From NCBI GenBank assembly GCA_045535075.1, contig JAZSKX010000013.1, positions 1-64,000 of the forward strand: DNA of 64,000 nt. The letters are read 5' to 3'. Every line of letters starts with the position of its first letter. Position 1 is the first letter of the stretch. Source of the stretch: Candidatus Spyradenecus sp. (GTDB lineage: Bacteria; Verrucomicrobiota; Verrucomicrobiia; Opitutales; UBA953). This document shows, in pieces, positions 18,001 to 24,000 of the stretch. A program made the position numbers.

Positions 18001-21000
18001 ATATTTTCGAAAATGGTATGGTTCGGACGAATTTATTAACGGCTGGCACCGTTGGTGTCTGTGGCTTGGGGATTGTCCTCCCGGCGAATTGAGGAAAATG
18101 CCGGAATGTATGAAGCGCGTTGAAGCCGTAAGAAAGCTTCGACTCGAAAGCAAGAGCAAGCCGACCAACCACCTTGCGGAAACGCCGACACGCTTTCACG
18201 TCGAAAACATGCCTGCGGGAACGTTTATCGTTATTCCGGAAGTTTCTTCCGAAAGACGTGATTACGTTCCGATCGGCTTTTTCAGTCCGGATGTTTTGTG
18301 CAGTAATTTGGTGAAAATCATTCCCGATGCGACGCTTTATCATTTCGGTATTTTGACTTCGACGATGCACAACGCGTGGATGCGTCAGGTTTGCGGACGT
18401 CTCGAAAGCAGGTATCGCTATTCGGCGGGAATTGTTTACAACAACTTCATTTGGCCGTCGGGCGTTCCCGCGAAAGCTCGCGAAAAAATCGAAAACCTTG
18501 CGCAGAAAATTTTGGATGTGCGCAAAATCTACATCGACGGGCAAGGCAGTTCCCTCGCCGATTTGTATGACCCGCTCACAATGCCCGGTGATTTGCTCCG
18601 CGCTCACCGTGAGCTCGACAAAGCCGTTGACAAACTCTACCGCAAAGAACCCTTCACCTCCGAGCGCGAACGCGTCGAATTCCTTTTCGCCCTCTACGAA
18701 TCCGCCGCTACCCCACTCGCTCCTGCGACACCAAAACTTTCTCCCCGCAAACGGAAAACACAGTAGAGAAAAATTGCTATGAATAAGAATCTAAGCGATT
18801 ACGCGAAGGCGCTATCGGAGTTAAGCTCCGAAGATATTTACACGGGACTTGTTGGCTACGGATTATTTCCTGAAAAACTACCTCCAATTTTCACTTCCGA
18901 AAAATTTGAGAGATTATGTCGTGGCGATGGGAAAAGCACTTTTTACACTGATAGTGTTTGTGATTATATCGTTCATGAAAGTATTCGAAATACGAATGTC
19001 CCTCGTGTTATGGGGATTCCGAATCCGTTTGCGTACCATAATTTAGCCAGCAGGGTTAAAGATAATTGGCAAAAGATTGTTGATTATTTTAAGGAAAAGA
19101 CAGAAGGGAATCTTCATAAGGTAAGCAAAATTCATCTGCGAAAAATCAAAGGGAAGAAATGTATATTTGAGATGAATTATAAAAATCATCGTACAGATGA
19201 TTATCCGGAATTAGATCTTAGAATCGGAGCGAAATATTTAGTTAAAGCGGATATTTCAAATTGCTTTCCGAGCATGTATTCTCACGCTCTTGCATGGGCT
19301 CTCGTCGGGAAAGAGATCGCGAAAGAGAATAGCAGAAGTAAGAAGGAATGGTATAACGAGTTAGACAAACTGTCCCGGTATATAAAAAACAACGAAACAA
19401 ATGGTTTTTTAATTGGGCCTCATGTTTCAAACCTACTTTCCGAAATAATTCTCGTGGCGGTAGACGACAGCTTGCGGAAAAACCATGGCAGCGAGGTGAA
19501 TTATTTTCGAAATATTGACGATTATTCGTTTTATGCGAAAAGCCGCGATGAGGCGGAGCGGTTTTTGGTGAGTTTGAGGGAAGCATTACGTGAGTATGGG
19601 TTGTCCTTAAATCACAAAAAAACGGAGATAATAGAACTTCCGTTGATGCGACCTGAGTCATGGGTGAATGAAATTAATGACTTTTTAGCGTTTTGTCCGT
19701 CTAAGCGTTTTGAAAAAGGTCGGTTGCAGGCGTTCGTGAACAAAGTTGTACTGCTTTTTAAAAACAACGGAGAGAATAGCGCGATCATCAATTATGCAAT
19801 GAAAGCGATTCGAGAACGTTCGGCTGATTCCCATGGTCGAGAATATTACATAAAAACGATATTTCATTTATCTCATCTTTACCCCTATATTTTCCCGCTT
19901 TTAGATAAAAATTTATTTGAGCCTTTTGATGTAGAGGTCGGGGATATCCGTACGCTTTCCTGGAAAATGTATGAGCTTGCCATGAAGGTTCGAAATTACG
20001 AAGCGGCAAGCTATTCTATTTATTACGCTCTTAAGTATGGATTTAGACTATCAAAGGTAGATTTTGACCGTATAAAAAACTCCGGAGACTGTGTTTTATT
20101 GATATTGGCATGGAGGTATTCCGTACGATTTCAGTTAAAGAGTGAGCAAGACAAATACACGGATTTGGCGAAGGATTTGTTGAAACGTGATTTTGATCGT
20201 TACTGGGTTTTTGTGTACGAAGCATTAGGCGATTCGGATCTCAAGGAAATCGACTCCGGAAAAAACAAATTCAAAGATCAGTGGGTGGCGCTAAAGAAGA
20301 AAAGCATATCTTTCCTTCTTTCTGACGAAGAAGTACGCGCTAAAGTATCTCCAAATAGCAAGACAATGCACATAAATTTGGAAGGAGGGGATTATGACGA
20401 TGAGAGGGCAATCGCGCTTTCGAAAGAAATTTGGAGACAGGCAGGGAAAGATCTTGTAGGGTTCGACGCGGAGGAGGGAGAGCGCTGTTTAAGGTTGCTT
20501 TTGAGAAATTTATTTTTAGGGTTTGTTTCAAATTCAAATATTTCTATATCGAGGGAAAGGTTTAAAAATTCAAAATTCCTTTCGCTTTTGGATTGGATGA
20601 AGGACAATAACTATTTGGGAGAACGGCTTGGGAGAAAACCTGATGCAGGAGAAAAAGGACGCCTCTCATGCTATTGGGCTAAGGAAAAATTGCATGAGCA
20701 CTTCCATTTATTTGGAAAGGACGTGGCACCTTTGGAGGGGCAAGATGATTATTTCGTTGAGTTGAGGATGACAGATAAAAGGATATGCAAGGTACGGTTT
20801 CGTTCAGAAAAAGAGCAAAGGTATCAAAAAGGGCTTAGCGATCTTAACGAATTTTATAAAGGATTTAAGTTTACATACAGATCTCCACAGCTAAAAGAAC
20901 GGATACGGTTTTATCCGTTTCTCAAAGCTATTTTTAATAGGGCTTCGTGGGATTGTGGCGGGCGATTGTATTCTACCGGAGGGAATGGAATCAGTTACCA

Positions 21001-24000
21001 AAGCTTACCGTCGGATATCAGAATGAGCATTAGAATAGGTGGGAAAAAGACCGTAGAACTAGATTTTTCGGGGATGCACATAGCAATGCTTTATGCGAAA
21101 GAAAAAGTGAATGTTCCTGAGCAGATTTATGATTTTATGGGGACAGAGTTGATCCCGCTTATCAAGCATTTGACAATGGTTCTAATTAATAGCAGAACCG
21201 AGGAAGTTGCGCTAAACGAGGTTCGCTTCAAGGAGAGGGAGTTAGAGCAGTATTTAGGGGAAATCAGTGATAAGGATGCTTCTCTTTTGTCCGCGATTAA
21301 GGCGATGAGAGGAAGAGAAAAAGAAAATACATTTGAGGATTTAGTTGGTAAGATAAAAGAACATCATAAACCCATTGAGAAATATTTTGGAAGTGATTGT
21401 GGCGTGAGACTTCAGAATAAAGATTCTATCATTGCACTGGAGATACTTGAAGAATTTGCGAAACAAGGTATTCCTGTCTTGCCTGTGCATGATTCTTTTA
21501 TCATCCAGAAAGAGTATGAGGGAAATCTGAGGAATGCAATGGATAGGTTGTTCAAAAAGCACAATAATGGATACCCTTGTGAAATTCATTAAAATTTAAA
21601 TCATTATGAACGACAAAAAAGGCTACGTTTACATTTTGACGAATCCGAGTTTTCGGGAAGATTGGGTGAAAATCGGAAAAAGTTCACGCCCGGTCGATGT
21701 GCGTTCAAAGGAATTAGATAATACGGCGGTTCCGCTTCCGTTTGAGATTTTTGCGACGCTCAAAACCTCGAAGTATCATTTGGTTGAAAAACAAATTCAT
21801 AAGATGATTGATCGTCTGACGGATTTACGGATTCGGCAAAATCGGGAGTTTTTCAATGTTTCTCCGCAGTTGGCATTTGAGATATTGAAAGATGCCGCAT
21901 CCACGCTTGATGATGCGGAGATAAAGCTGTTTTCCGGAGTAGAGGACGCTGAACATGCGCCGCCACGGCGTCCGCCGTTTAAATTCAGCATGGCGGGTGT
22001 TAAGATTGGTGAGAAAGTCACGTTTGTTCCTGCCAAAATAGAAGTAACGGTGGCAAGTGAGAAGCACGTCGAGTACGAGGGACGGCTTTATACGCTTTCG
22101 GCGTTTACGGGAACGTTCATGCCGGAGTCCGAGCTAAATTCTTCGGGCGCTTACCAAGGACCGAAATATTTTACTTACAAAGGAAAAACGCTCAGCGCTC
22201 TTCGCCGGGAACGGGAATCCGGCAAATAGCTGTTTGCCATTCCGGAAAAGGATTTTTTGGAATTCTTTTTTCAGGTAAAACAGGCGTTGAAGGCATGCAA
22301 ACGAGCTAAACGAGCCTCCGCCCTGGAGAGATATTAGATACCACGCTGCGGAACGATCAATTTGCACTCTACGTTCACGCGGAAGCGATTCCTTCGTCCC
22401 AAGGCATTGTTGCGCTTTTCAAGCGCATATCTCTCGTCGGTGTTCCCGCAGGTAGCTTACGCCACCTGCGGTTATTTTTGTTCGGCTTTTTAAGCCGGCA
22501 CAAATCCGCTAAGCCGCAACGTTTTTTTTCAAAACAGAGAAACAATGTAGAGGTTTTTCTAAAAAATTATCCGTGAAATTCCGTGTGTTCCATGGTTTGG
22601 AAAAGTTTGTGCATCACGCGCGAGCGGTCTGGGAAAGTCGCTGGAAGCTCCAATTTTCAGTTTTCAACTCTCGCCCGGACGCCGCATGCGCACTCGCTTT
22701 GCTCGTTTGCCAATTACGCTTTCGGTTAAAATGTCTCTTAAAAATTCACGGTGTTTATTTAATATATTTTAATTATCTTATTAAAAAATATTTTACTTTC
22801 GGGGAGTTGGCGGATAGATTTGAAGAATCATGAGTACGCTGAAAAATCTTCGTTTGAGAGCCGGATTTACGCAGGACGCGCTTGCGGGAGAGATTGGCGT
22901 TTCGAAGCAGACGCTGATTGCCTACGAGAAAAATCCCGCGAATATTCCGGCGGGAAAGGTGGCGGCGTTGGCGCGGCTTTTTGAAGTCGATTGCGACTGC
23001 ATTATCAACGATACCGAGCCGAAAACTTATTCCTACGACGTGCAGGCAAACACGGGAACGGCGGTGCAAAACCCGGAAATCCGCATTTCGATTCCGCAAG
23101 ATAATATCGAGAAATTCAAAGAAGTTTTGCTCTACATTCTCGGGCGTGTGGGCGCGCGTCCGAACGTCGGTCAGACCGTGCTTTATAAATTACTCTACTT
23201 CATCGATTTCGATTACTACGAAAAATACGAAGAACAACTCATCGGAGCCAAATACATCAAAAATACGTTCGGACCGACGCCGGTGGATTTTGCAAAAATC
23301 ACGCAGGAAATGGAACGCGGGAACGAGCTTTCCGTAGTAAAAGACAAATATTTTACCAAGGAACAAACAAAGTATCTGCCGCACCGCGACGCAGATTTGA
23401 GCCGGTTCTCGGCGCGGGAACTCGCCCACATCGAAGATTGTCTCCGCAAATACGCGGGAATGAACGCAAAGGAAATTTCGGATTATTCGCACAAAGATGT
23501 GCCGTGGATCGTGGCGGAAAACCGCGAGCCGATAGACTACGAAAGCGTTTTCTACCGTACGCCGGAAACTTCGGTTCGACAATATGCCGATGACGAATAA
23601 CGAAGCGCAAAAACACTTGGAATACCGCGAAACATCGGAATTTCAGCGGGATTTCAAGCGCCTGAAAAAGCGTTTCCGGACGCTTGACGAGGATTTCGCG
23701 GTAATGAAGAAAGCGGCGATTGAGCTTTTGCATGTCCGCAAAATCGATAACGGAGCCTGCATCGAAATCGAGGGATTTTCTTCCAATCCGCGTTTATCCT
23801 ACAAAGTCGTGAAATTCGCCTGCAAATCCTTGAAAAACAAGGGCGTGCGCAGCGGCTTACGCGCAATTTATGTCTTCGATAAAACGGCGGGAACGGTTTA
23901 CTTCGTCGAAATTTATTATCATGAAAAGGACGGAGCGGATTTGAATCGGGAACGGCTTCGCCGATTTTTGGCAACGTTCCCGGCATAATGTTTGCGGGCA

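Follow-up and report, generated by a model that had tools for sequence, protein, structure and literature searches.

The window, by which we mean the whole stretch of 64,000 nucleotides analysed here, carries a real and intact gene for a predicted fusion protein in the gap between thiE and pckG (Table 1). The 937-residue product given in the genome-wide survey's note was recovered, and the reading frame runs intact to the C-terminus that is normal for the family. The GC content of the gene is 0.392. Its neighbours in the island have 0.49 and 0.47, and the housekeeping genes that flank them 0.58-0.63. It lies between a restriction-modification (RM) enzyme gene, which is outside the system and probably has its true start closer to 15911, and a T5orf172/PDC-S57 candidate defence gene. 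L009 and contigs from runs X1, X4 and X6 show the same order of fusion gene and then T5orf172/PDC-S57 gene; in L010, L092 and L142 no such gene adjoins the fused one. The linkage is limited to close relatives.

Table 1. Genes, predicted modules and conserved residues at the fusion locus (window positions)
Feature	Position	Strand	Basis
Upstream neighbour, MmeI-type IIG restriction-modification enzyme	15779..18766	+	five MmeI Pfam domains; PADLOC REase_MTase_IIG, 1174 bits
Whole gene, predicted 937-aa DRT4-TV-Pol fusion protein	18779..21592	+	ATG start
Predicted DRT4/UG15-type module: RT fingers and palm, alpha-Rep, C-terminal tail WVALKKKSISFLL	18779..20323 (residues 1-515)	+	profiles, PDB match, model
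Y134, aligns to priming Tyr125 of E. coli DRT4	19178..19180	+	alignment; Y in 22/22 fused proteins
RT motif A Asp, D158	19250-19252	+	alignment, conservation
H169, aligns to RNase His160 of E. coli DRT4	19283..19285	+	alignment
D196, putative partner of H169, aligns to D192 of E. coli DRT4	19364-19366	+	alignment
RT motif C N-I-D-D (N245-D248), predicted catalytic D247 and D248	19511..19522	+	alignment, conservation
Predicted winged-helix domain, N-terminus of TV-Pol module	20387..20719 (residues 537-647)	+	VIA-align of model
Predicted minimal family-A/T7-RNAP-like polymerase core (TV-Pol type)	20747..21589 (residues 657-937)	+	model, Foldseek, VIA-align, phrog_4756, hhalign
R729 in beta-hairpin GGRLY, invariant Arg of the family	20963..20965	+	aligns to Arg of PolA TGRLS
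Motif A DFSGMH, predicted catalytic D762; H767 at Pol I steric-gate Glu position	21062..21079	+	aligned to DYSQIE of PolA
Fingers helix IPLIKHLTMVLIN: I792 at RxxxK Arg site, then K796, N804	21152..21190	+	family alignment
Motif C HDSF (H904, D905, S906, F907)	21488..21499	+	22/22 fused
Downstream neighbour, T5orf172/PDC-S57 candidate defence gene	21606..22229	+	starts 13 nt past fusion-gene stop codon

The DRT4-type half

Residues 1-515 are predicted to form a complete DRT4/UG15-type reverse transcriptase. The PADLOC Drt4 profile PDLC02178 matches nearly end to end (603 bits, residues 7-514 on model positions 4-501 of 506). The NCBIfam Drt4 match of the earlier note was obtained again (NF041749, E 4.4e-111, 372.2 bits, residues 32-512 on positions 21-489 of 489), below the cut-off of 450 and with Drt3b as runner-up at 125 bits. 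UG15/DRT4 chains in the PDB match the protein at E 3e-45, as does the solved DRT4 9vdo_A the full-length model (E 8.8e-23, TMt 0.80). Within this part Pfam detects RVT_1 (residues 144-285) and one sub-threshold PH-domain match (E 0.22).

Y134, D158, H169, D196 and D247-D248 are present in all 22 fused proteins, and the RNase residues H169 and D196 also in 108/108 unfused relatives. The E. coli equivalent of Y134 is reported as the priming residue (10.64898/2026.10.21.760695; PMC12783706). The Asn that replaces the Tyr of YxDD in motif C is normal in this Drt4 subfamily (90 of 108 unfused proteins). Unfused relatives terminate just past the same C-terminal tail motif, and the fusion point falls after that motif.

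The second module and its family

We predict from sequence and model that residues ~516-937 comprise a winged helix and a minimal polymerase of the Pol I/T7-RNAP superfamily. A 435-aa C-terminal piece was used for modelling; labels such as D260 and K294 refer to this piece, and D762 and K796 to the whole protein. Most of what the survey's note said of this part was borne out: Pfam finds no match in it at E 1, an independent AlphaFold model of the piece (80-row alignment) is confident (pLDDT 89.5, pTM 0.88), and Foldseek returns 108 PDB matches at E <= 0.001, the best 50 of the 108 all being family-A DNA polymerases and the best among those listed being 8jrb (E 6.6e-6). Likeness to both Pol I and single-subunit RNA polymerases was also recovered, with VIA-align Z-scores of 13.3 for yeast mtRNAP, 13.2 for apicoplast Pol, 12.5 for Aquifex Pol I, 11.9 for Klenow and 11.8 for T7 RNAP. 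The first 145 residues of the piece, described before as barely matched, can now be assigned in part: residues 35-145 resemble winged-helix chains (MarR-type, S19e and others) with a middling Z of 5-7. Whole phage proteins show the same layout of winged helix and polymerase core. The pTM of 0.81 for the full-length model suggests that the two modules pack in a fixed arrangement.

Aligned by hhalign to the genome's own PolA (E 5.7e-4), the module sets GGRLY..YQ..R..DFSGMH against TGRLSS..NLQNIP..DYSQIEL. R729 and D762 are found in 22/22 fused and 197/197 stand-alone proteins, K796 and N804 each in 22/22 fused proteins, and the H, D and S of motif C, which is HDE in Pol I, in 195/197 stand-alone relatives. 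The residues singled out earlier (D260, K294, N302 and H402-D403-S404 of the piece) are as conserved as claimed (22/22 fused, 194-197 of 197 stand-alone). R729, D762, K796, N804 and HDS do not vary among the fused proteins, whose pairwise identities with the window protein span 34-86%. The first position of RxxxK is Arg or Lys in 20/22 fused and 190/197 stand-alone proteins; the only two fused exceptions are the window protein (I792) and P0005 (V). In Pol I and T7 RNAP this Arg contacts the phosphates of the incoming nucleotide.

The domain matches phrog_4756 of PHROGs (E 6.2e-45) and fits the published TV-Pol family, predicted primase-polymerases proposed as replicases of transposons as well as viruses (Iyer et al. 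2008, PMC2579912). The features listed there (hairpin Arg, two Asp, RxxxK) are found in the family described here. Because a profile of the family missed the reported TV-Pol of phage Ma-LMM01, membership rests on shared features, without a match to a named member. Relatives are mostly stand-alone proteins of 400-600 aa from phages and from elements bearing integrases or resolvases. The neighbours of 23 stand-alone relatives examined include integrases (8) and resolvases (5), as described for TV-Pols (PMC2579912).

The rarity reported earlier (only six RT-bearing and six stand-alone proteins among 5.8 billion) could be reproduced, but it is an artefact because that search was restricted to a length window. 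An unfiltered HMMER scan gives 5,434 protein clusters at E <= 1e-3 and 2,589 at <= 1e-10, and a search at a shorter length window adds 84 proteins. The domain is encoded in 103 phage records, with ICP1 gp100 among the homologues, and at 294 places in species-representative genomes. Clustering at 90% identity likewise leaves at least 22 fused forms, where seven had been given before.

One fusion event in varied neighbourhoods

The fused proteins descend from one ancient fusion event. In the RT tree (128 rows) the 22 form one clade (SH-aLRT 99) nested among 106 unfused Drt4 proteins, and in the Pol tree (220 rows) they fall in one clade of 24, two of which are short extras. The neighbourhoods differ: the L142 gene is in a dense defence island (type I RM, PDC-S41, PDC-M42, PDC-S01), and the L092 gene stands alone, adjoining an IS transposase. 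No partner gene, an OB-fold partner included, is conserved beside the fused genes examined. Because neighbours vary between fused genes, the fusion gene is a self-contained single-gene system.

How the two modules may work together

The survey's note proposed a single protein with two polymerases and a novel route to toxic or signalling nucleic acid. The first part holds to the extent that a Pol I/T7 RNAP superfamily polymerase follows a DRT4-type RT in one chain, with both catalytic sets conserved, but the second domain is neither an orphan nor rare. The claim of novelty was overstated because the domain is known, an RT has already been linked to a family-A polymerase in UG9 (PMC9226505), and the logic is known from DRT7. 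By analogy, the fusion appears to be a non-homologous exchange of the second polymerase within this known logic.

According to the abstracts of two 2026 preprints, the fused primase-polymerase domain of DRT7 uses what the RT has made as template and as primer. Our tentative preference, held at a little under an even chance, is for a self-contained antiphage protein with a similar hand-off, the TV-Pol module using DRT4's protein-primed ssDNA product as its template. We infer every enzymatic step, the template relation between the modules and the link to the RNase. The DRT4 half would, by homology, form a hexamer, make untemplated ssDNA from Tyr134 and carry a His/Asp RNase effector site. The TV-Pol module, directly after the DRT4 tail, may bind the tethered ssDNA and start a complementary strand de novo or by fold-back priming. 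The product would become duplex, either DNA or, if NTPs are preferred, an RNA:DNA hybrid, and this conversion may alter the manner or timing of DRT4 effector firing. If so, a single polypeptide might both synthesise DNA and copy it. A TV-Pol of SCCmec, CcPol, is reported to prime DNA de novo on an ssDNA template with dNTPs; this requires a separate OB-fold partner, MP (PMC7581432), whereas the fused genes have no conserved adjacent one. Priming on DRT4 DNA might be poor, because the E. coli DRT4 product is described as purine-rich and without fixed sequence (10.64898/2026.10.21.760695) and CcPol-MP as preferring pyrimidine start sites (PMC7581432).

Copying into RNA has a small chance of being correct: as an RNA polymerase or RNA primase, the module would turn DRT4 ssDNA into RNA:DNA hybrids or free RNA, not dsDNA. 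Motif C resembles the HDSF region of T7 RNAP (weakly, hhalign E 0.074), yeast mtRNAP gives the highest VIA-align score, the closest Atlas cluster carries the automatic name 'DNA-directed RNA polymerase family protein', and one stand-alone member weakly matches the RNA polymerase family phrog_414 (E 0.007). His occupies the Pol I steric-gate Glu position in 22/22 fused and 159/197 stand-alone proteins, and the equivalents of Pol I Phe762 and Tyr766 are Leu/Met and Asn, whereas CcPol, which prefers dNTPs, is reported to retain the Glu and Phe (PMC7581432). However, sugar choice cannot be read with confidence from these residues, the Z-scores for RNA and DNA polymerases are tied within 1-1.5, the listed Foldseek matches are all DNA polymerases, profile alignment is stronger to PolA motifs 2/A, and the sole TV-Pol with a reported assay uses dNTPs. 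A role as sensor or bait, in place of a working polymerase, is unlikely, though it merits somewhat more weight. Here the module would be a replication protein of phage or mobile-element origin, carried by the host next to the SSB-sensing DRT4 tail. By trapping those phage proteins (SSB-like, helicase or anti-defence) that normally bind such polymerases, it would license the RNase. It is attached exactly at that tail, which in E. coli DRT4 (residues 508-540) reportedly binds phage SSB gp44 and is required for RNase activation (10.64898/2026.10.21.760695). The characterised TV-Pol is reported to work tightly bound to an OB-fold SSB-like protein and to a helicase (PMC7581432; PMC10061031), and the many phage homologues, the missing RxxxK Arg of this copy and the loss of motif C in a relative also favour a bait. 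Yet the tail motif is kept, not replaced, and a bait leaves the need for the invariant catalytic Asp pair, K796, N804 and hairpin Arg unexplained.

Catalysis in this lineage is less well supported because I792 replaces the RxxxK Arg and the nearest relative is frameshifted: in L009 and G001, the closest genomic relatives, a 7-nt deletion at codon 828 cuts off motif C, and 6 member sequences of this truncated form are recorded. With the DRT4 functional residues all intact, the protein could act simply as a DRT4 while its second domain, losing or lacking activity, is carried along. We regard this as improbable, since the window frame is complete, all other catalytic residues are kept, dN/dS against L009 is lower in the Pol part (0.24) than in the RT part (0.39), and identity to P0005 is 90% in the Pol part and 83% in the RT part. 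It is very improbable that the gene is a mobile-element replication protein, a TV-Pol replicase that picked up an RT, rather than a defence gene. The proposed role of TV-Pols, the GC content below all surroundings and the transposase beside the L092 copy would suit such an origin. However, no integrase, resolvase, helicase or repeat-bounded element was seen around the window copy, which is set between the RM enzyme and PDC-S57 genes; the L142 copy is inside a defence island, and the RT half, nested among unfused Drt4 proteins, keeps its RNase effector residues.

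Anatomy of the fused protein

The ORF of the fusion gene is intact (937 aa, ATG start), and by sequence and predicted structure the N-terminal half of its product reads as a complete DRT4. The NCBIfam Drt4 match reported in the genome-wide survey's note (NF041749, 372.2 bits over residues 32-512, below the cut-off of 450) was obtained again. The PADLOC Drt4 model PDLC02178 matches at 603 bits and over almost its full length (residues 7-514 align with 4-501 of its 506 positions), with four more Drt4 models ranking below it, and both Pfam matches, RVT_1 and a sub-threshold PH domain (E 0.22), fall within the RT part. 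Solved UG15/DRT4 chains match residues 33-483 at E 3e-45. The RT plus alpha-Rep fold of the solved proteins (9vdo, 9l9s, 21ou) is recovered in a full-length AlphaFold (AF2) model built on an alignment of 22 fused homologues (pLDDT 82.2, pTM 0.81), for which the best structural match is DRT4 9vdo_A (E 8.8e-23, TMt 0.80, 509 columns), followed by the UG15 crystal structure 9l9s (TMt 0.72-0.76) and then by DRT6 and AbiK.

E. coli DRT4 is described as a hexamer that primes on Tyr125 and uses D149, D240 and D241 to make purine-rich untemplated ssDNA; H160 and D192 form its RNase site, and a flexible C-terminal tail (residues 508-540, N521, F523 and E525 among them) is required for recognition of a phage SSB and for switching on the RNase (10.64898/2026.10.21.760695; 10.64898/2026.10.27.754916). 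The residues used for priming, for synthesis and for RNA cleavage all align and are kept in the window protein. Y134 aligns with Tyr125 and is Tyr in 22 of 22 fused proteins (among the unfused subfamily relatives, for which the alignment may be offset here, the same column has H 72 times, Y 35 times and S once). D158, D247 and D248 correspond to D149, D240 and D241 and are present in every fused protein, as well as in 107, 108 and 108, respectively, of 108 unfused relatives. H169 and D196 correspond to H160 and D192 and are invariant in both sets (22/22 and 108/108). By homology, this half would be expected to form a hexamer, to make protein-primed ssDNA and to carry RNase activity.

The window enzyme is only ~28% identical to E. 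coli DRT4 and belongs to a different Drt4 subfamily (that of PDLC02178), with N-I-D-D in place of the RT motif Y-x-D-D. The change to NIDD was considered as a mark of the fusion and rejected, because N is the norm among unfused relatives in the subfamily (90 of 108). Those relatives stop a few residues past the motif W..(M/L)K...(V/I)SF(I/L). In the window protein this tail motif occupies residues 502-515 and the chain then goes on, so the additional module appears to have been appended to a whole DRT4, the tail not being replaced. The ~420 extra C-terminal residues set the protein apart from described DRT4s; the accessible literature on DRT4 describes none such.

For the last 435 residues (503-937, "the piece" below), the absence of a Pfam match noted in the survey was reproduced at E 1, DNA_pol_A (PF00476) included, and no RNA polymerase match to the window protein was found in Pfam or PHROG. 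The polymerase fold claimed in the same note is borne out by our own model of the piece (80-row alignment; pLDDT 89.5, pTM 0.88), by Foldseek and by a structural scan. Foldseek returned 108 PDB matches at E <= 0.001, those listed all being family-A DNA polymerases (best 6.6e-6), with TM scores that are low (0.25-0.32) because the domain is much smaller than the polymerases it matches. In the all-against-all structural scan, RNA and DNA polymerases are tied: yeast mtRNAP (Z 13.3), apicoplast Pol (13.2), Aquifex Pol I (12.5), Pol nu (12.0), Klenow (11.9) and T7 RNAP (11.8, where the core alone aligns, 254 of 832 residues). The relation to family A becomes visible only through the predicted fold and a profile-profile alignment with the polymerase domain of the genome's own PolA (E 5.7e-4).

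In that alignment 'FNRASWDCGGRLYS..YQSLPSD..R..VELDFSGMHIAMLY' is set against 'FNM-TVTATGRLSS..LQNIPTR..R..VDADYSQIELRVLA' of PolA, which makes R729 (hairpin), Q741 and D762 (motif A) homologous to the Pol I signature. R729 is the Arg of 'GGRLY', modeled on strands 727-732, and its PolA counterpart is the Arg of TGRLS; the models put D762 and D905 on strands where motifs A and C would be expected. All 22 fused proteins keep R729, R748, D762, H767, K796, N804 and H904-D905-S906-F907; among 197 stand-alone relatives R729 and D762 are found in all and D905 in 195. Motif 2/A resembles Pol I, and motif C (HDSF) resembles T7 RNAP, with a weak hhalign match (E 0.074, 33 columns). On the fingers helix K796 is followed eight residues later by N804, a position occupied by Tyr in Pol I and T7 RNAP. 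The sugar-gate position is His: H767 stands where Pol I has its steric-gate Glu (Klenow numbering). Both E710 and F762 are named in PMC7581432.

The thumb described for TV-Pols has two antiparallel helices; in the model one long helix (677-693) lies ahead of the hairpin, and structural matches to Pol I begin about there. Residues 537-647 (35-145 of the piece) are modeled as a winged helix, with middling matches (Z 5-7) to MarR-type, S19e and other winged-helix chains. A sequence search of the PDB with the family profile gave one weak S19e winged-helix match alone (E 0.1).

The TV-Pol family and its carriers

TV-Pols were described by Iyer, Abhiman and Aravind (2008; PMC2579912) as minimal superfamily-A polymerases of 400-600 aa from transposons and viruses, for which primase-polymerase activity was predicted. 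They are characterized by a hairpin Arg, two Asp residues and RxxxK; a subset, which carries an extra N-terminal domain, is associated with resolvases, integrases and RM-rich regions. The family was reported from Loktanella, Methylobacterium, Sulfitobacter, Paracoccus, Geobacter and Vibrio (PMC2579912), and its named members include those of phage Ma-LMM01, Sputnik (V13), SCCmec (CcPol) and Loktanella vestfoldensis. The C-terminal domain fits this family by shared features, and a search of the record of phage Ma-LMM01, host of a named TV-Pol, with our profile of the polymerase family (A1) found nothing at E 0.01, the same profile matching gp100 of the Vibrio cholerae phage ICP1 at 1.6e-52. The features shared are a minimal family-A core without nuclease domains, the invariant hairpin Arg, the two catalytic Asp residues, RxxxK in the clade as a whole and, as in the subset, an extra N-terminal domain. 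The stand-alone relatives, of 400-600 aa, adjoin resolvases, integrases and RM genes: an integrase is present at 8 of 23 annotated stand-alone loci and a resolvase at 5, one or the other at 10, and RM or other defence genes at 6 or more. Relatives were found in four of the same genera (Loktanella, Methylobacterium, Sulfitobacter and Paracoccus).

The window protein differs from the family as published in that the polymerase is fused behind an RT, whereas PMC2579912 presents fusion to a D5 helicase or an N-terminal domain only, and in that this copy lacks the Arg of RxxxK. CcPol of SCCmec is a TV-Pol and an active DNA polymerase, which together with its OB-fold partner MP carries out de novo DNA priming on ssDNA with dNTPs (PMC7581432; PMC10061031); according to a 2020 paper it was the only TV-Pol tested. 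NCBI recognises CcPol as PolA, and the equivalents of Glu710 and Phe762 are retained in it (PMC7581432), whereas the window domain has no Pfam match and carries His and Leu/Met at the two positions.

The survey's note had held the C-terminal domain to be rare ("6 + 6 proteins"). Its count could be reproduced and is due to the length window of the search; a search among shorter proteins adds 84, and a HMMER scan of 1.84 billion representatives yields 5,434 clusters at E <= 1e-3 (2,589 at <= 1e-10). The fusion itself is less singular than was held. All 13 members tested match the PHROGs family phrog_4756 (function unknown), the window piece at E 6.2e-45. The family is encoded in 103 phage records (76 of Vibrio, including ICP1 gp100, 14 of Aeromonas, and others) and in 2 plasmid records only, and a search of species-representative genomes with its two conserved peptide patterns alone gives 294 places. 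Phage proteins of 400-450 aa correspond over their whole length to the full model, winged helix included, the best being a protein of Aeromonas phage 4L372D (E 1.2e-22, TM 0.71). The ICP1 gene (ORF100/gp100, L089:4032-5699) encodes a 555-aa protein annotated as hypothetical (profile E 1.6e-52). Several Vibrio, Aeromonas and Pseudoalteromonas phages have 2-3 copies of the polymerase family each.

One clade of fused proteins and a second-polymerase reading

The best 120 Drt4 relatives fall into two length classes only, 106 of 515-581 aa and 14 of 841-940 aa. Pooling several searches gave 22 fused proteins that are 34-86% identical to the window protein. An RT-part tree of 128 rows places them in one clade (SH-aLRT 99). 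In a FastTree tree of the polymerase part (220 rows) they fall in one clade of 24 (support 99) together with P0017, which is a fragment of a fused gene at a contig end, and P0109, a 428-aa protein that may be another split form. Compared with the 92%-identical locus L009, dN/dS is 0.39 for the RT part and 0.24 for the polymerase part. The fused proteins have a single origin, and by tree and substitution pattern the fusion is judged old and under selection. The synonymous distance to L009 varies from region to region, with a dS of 0.12 for the RT part, 0.36 for residues 516-826 and 0.08 for the final 106 codons, which suggests recombination within the fusion gene between lineages.

A two-gene precursor was considered and rejected, as a single locus offers one case and no pattern. 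In a Desulfovibrio chromosome (L056:7698-11211) an unfused Drt4 (524 aa, PADLOC 509 bits) has a gene for a 465-aa stand-alone TV-Pol ~540 nt upstream, with a resolvase, PifA and an integrase close by. The polymerase there falls outside the fused clade, so the pairing is either an independent juxtaposition or chance. None of 77 unfused Drt4 loci has a separate TV-Pol beside it, and no Drt4 was found beside the remaining 77 stand-alone TV-Pol loci.

The clade as a whole has RxxxK (19 Arg and 1 Lys at the Arg position in 22 fused proteins; 177 R and 13 K in 197 stand-alone ones). The window copy has K796 and carries I792 at the Arg position, where the 90%-identical protein P0005 has Val. The closest relatives (88-92% identical), L009:6498-9320 and G001:C76:28617-31423, the latter from the same genus, share a 7-nt deletion at codon 828 that leaves the last ~108 residues, with motif C, in a separate frame; for the truncated form, of 841 aa, 6 member sequences are on record. 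In another fused homologue (L099:91-2843) the gene is broken where the winged helix begins, which leaves two overlapping ORFs, one of 555 aa (DRT4 and linker) and one of 384 aa (TV-Pol); at ~7x contig coverage, the break may be a sequencing or assembly error or a natural two-gene split. I792, the deletion and the break would count against an active second polymerase in the window copy. Arguing against decay are the intact ORF of the window gene and the higher identity to P0005 of the polymerase part (90%, compared with 83% for the RT part).

The reading we put forward, tentatively, is that a TV-Pol of phage or transposon type was domesticated as the second enzyme of a DRT4. Starting from the DRT4 chemistry expected of the N-terminal half, the tethered ssDNA would become the template, and perhaps also the fold-back primer, from which the TV-Pol module makes the complementary strand, giving a duplex or an RNA:DNA hybrid. 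The conversion, instead of or besides phage SSB binding, would pull the ssDNA from the RT and fire the RNase, for example upon infection-raised nucleotide pools. That the module is instead a bait for phage replication proteins is less likely: its place at the SSB-sensing tail would suit such a role, but its catalytic residues are invariant.

For the domesticated second polymerase, the closest worked example is DRT7 (UG10), in which, according to two 2026 preprints, protein-primed poly(dT) made by the RT is both template and primer for a fused primase-polymerase of AEP fold. The two proteins share a class 1 UG/Abi RT with a C-terminal second polymerase in one polypeptide, and, by analogy, the logic proposed here would be the same. 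They differ in the RT group (UG10 there, UG15 here), in the unrelated folds of the second polymerase (AEP primase in DRT7, family A in the window protein) and in product, which is poly(dT)/poly(dA) in DRT7, whereas E. coli DRT4 is described as making purine-rich DNA of no fixed sequence. Iyer et al. argued that TV-Pols and AEP primase-polymerases displace each other beside D5 helicases (PMC2579912), a view that a comparable displacement beside class 1 UG/Abi RTs would fit. UG9, where the association goes back to Kojima and Kanehisa (2008), also has a class 1 UG/Abi RT that is enriched in defence islands and reported as functionally linked to a family-A polymerase (Mestre et al., 2022; PMC9226505); there, however, the RT is of another group and a neighbouring gene encodes the polymerase. 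DRT3 is likewise reported to make duplex DNA by the cooperation of two polymerase activities, but with two separate RT proteins and a non-coding RNA, and no family-A polymerase.

DRT4, TV-Pol and the combination of an RT with a second polymerase (DRT3, DRT7, and UG9 with its neighbouring PolA; PMC9226505) are thus already in print. We found no description of a DRT4-TV-Pol fusion in the DRT4, UG15, TV-Pol and RT/family-A defence literature, though the supplements of the bioRxiv preprints might list such forms. Mestre et al. present UG15 as a stand-alone multi-domain protein, and the supplementary tree file has no PolA entry, although tables S2-S4 of the same paper might list long UG15 forms (PMC9226505).

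DRT systems make unusual DNA products, and both DRT3 and DRT7 require a second polymerase for duplex DNA. If the reading holds, the fusion would be an independent, non-homologous reinvention of the logic of DRT7 and the first cellular role for N-domain-bearing TV-Pols. With DRT4 using a polymerase of a different fold for seemingly the same job, an RT strand followed by a second-polymerase copy would be a recurrent design, and members of one RT family that have or lack a second-strand enzyme would offer a natural comparison of ssDNA and duplex in signalling. For the TV-Pols, with their thousands of clusters in integrative elements and phages such as ICP1, it would provide a tractable single-polypeptide system with the template built in.

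The island and its neighbours

The fusion gene lies in an insert of ~8.5 kb between thiE and pckG (see table), the first three genes of which are spaced by 12-13 nt. Its GC content of 0.392 is equal in the two halves (RT 0.388, C-terminal 0.398), and compares with 0.49 and 0.47 in two adjoining island genes and with 0.63 and 0.575 in the flanking housekeeping genes thiE and pckG.

Features of the thiE-pckG insert and its surroundings in the window
Feature	Coordinates	Strand	Remark
RecC-type ORF	9601-13044	-	1147 aa, Exonuc_V_gamma domain, upstream of island
thiE	14933-15556		left flank
MmeI-type IIG RM enzyme	15779-18766		first gene of insert
Atu_Ti4-like match	17390-17486		sub-threshold, within MmeI gene
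Fusion gene	18779-21592	+	second gene of insert
T5orf172/PDC-S57 gene	21606-22229		third gene of insert
Contig divergence	22230-22231		recombination joint
Candidate island-end module	22573-23988		86-aa ORF to 134-aa ORF
86-aa ORF			between T5orf172/PDC-S57 and HTH-SocA/Panacea genes
HTH-SocA/Panacea protein	22830-23600		
134-aa ORF			no family match; last in insert
pckG	24119-25936		right flank

Fused genes occur in defence islands as single genes, as DRT4 does. Their neighbours differ, so the fusion gene looks self-contained, like DRT4. The fused gene of locus L142 is accompanied by a type I restriction enzyme, PDC-S41, PDC-M42A/B, PDC-M03A and PDC-S01, that of L092 by an IS transposase and glycosidases, and no recognisable neighbours were identified for that of L010. 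The T5orf172/PDC-S57 gene was weighed as an obligate partner; it occurs only by the window gene and its close relatives (L009 and contigs from the public sequencing runs X1, X4 and X6) and was ruled out by its absence in L010, L092 and L142. Within the genus, the fusion was found in 2 of 19 genomes searched, the window's own counted, and an unfused Drt4 in one more.

A search for a non-coding RNA partner in Rfam at E 0.1 gave one match alone, which is below threshold (29.5 bits, where the gathering score is 40); it is to Atu_Ti4, an sRNA of Rhizobiales, lies inside the MmeI gene and is most likely due to chance. Promoter and terminator scans were uninformative, since they gave fewer sites than in shuffled sequence. 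The MmeI-type ORF opens with a TTG ~44 codons ahead of the first Pfam-matched residue and is longer than its L009 orthologue (995 versus 930 aa); thus, translation probably begins at the Met near 15911. The HTH and SocA/Panacea protein and the small ORFs on either side, with which the island ends, resemble a Panacea-type toxin-antitoxin or another defence module.

Contigs from X1, X4 and X6 match the window across the fusion and T5orf172 genes and diverge exactly where the latter ends, marking a recombination joint of the island. A 3.6-kb contig from an RNA-library run covers 19253-22230 at ~94% identity; it comes from a relative and may be DNA carry-over.
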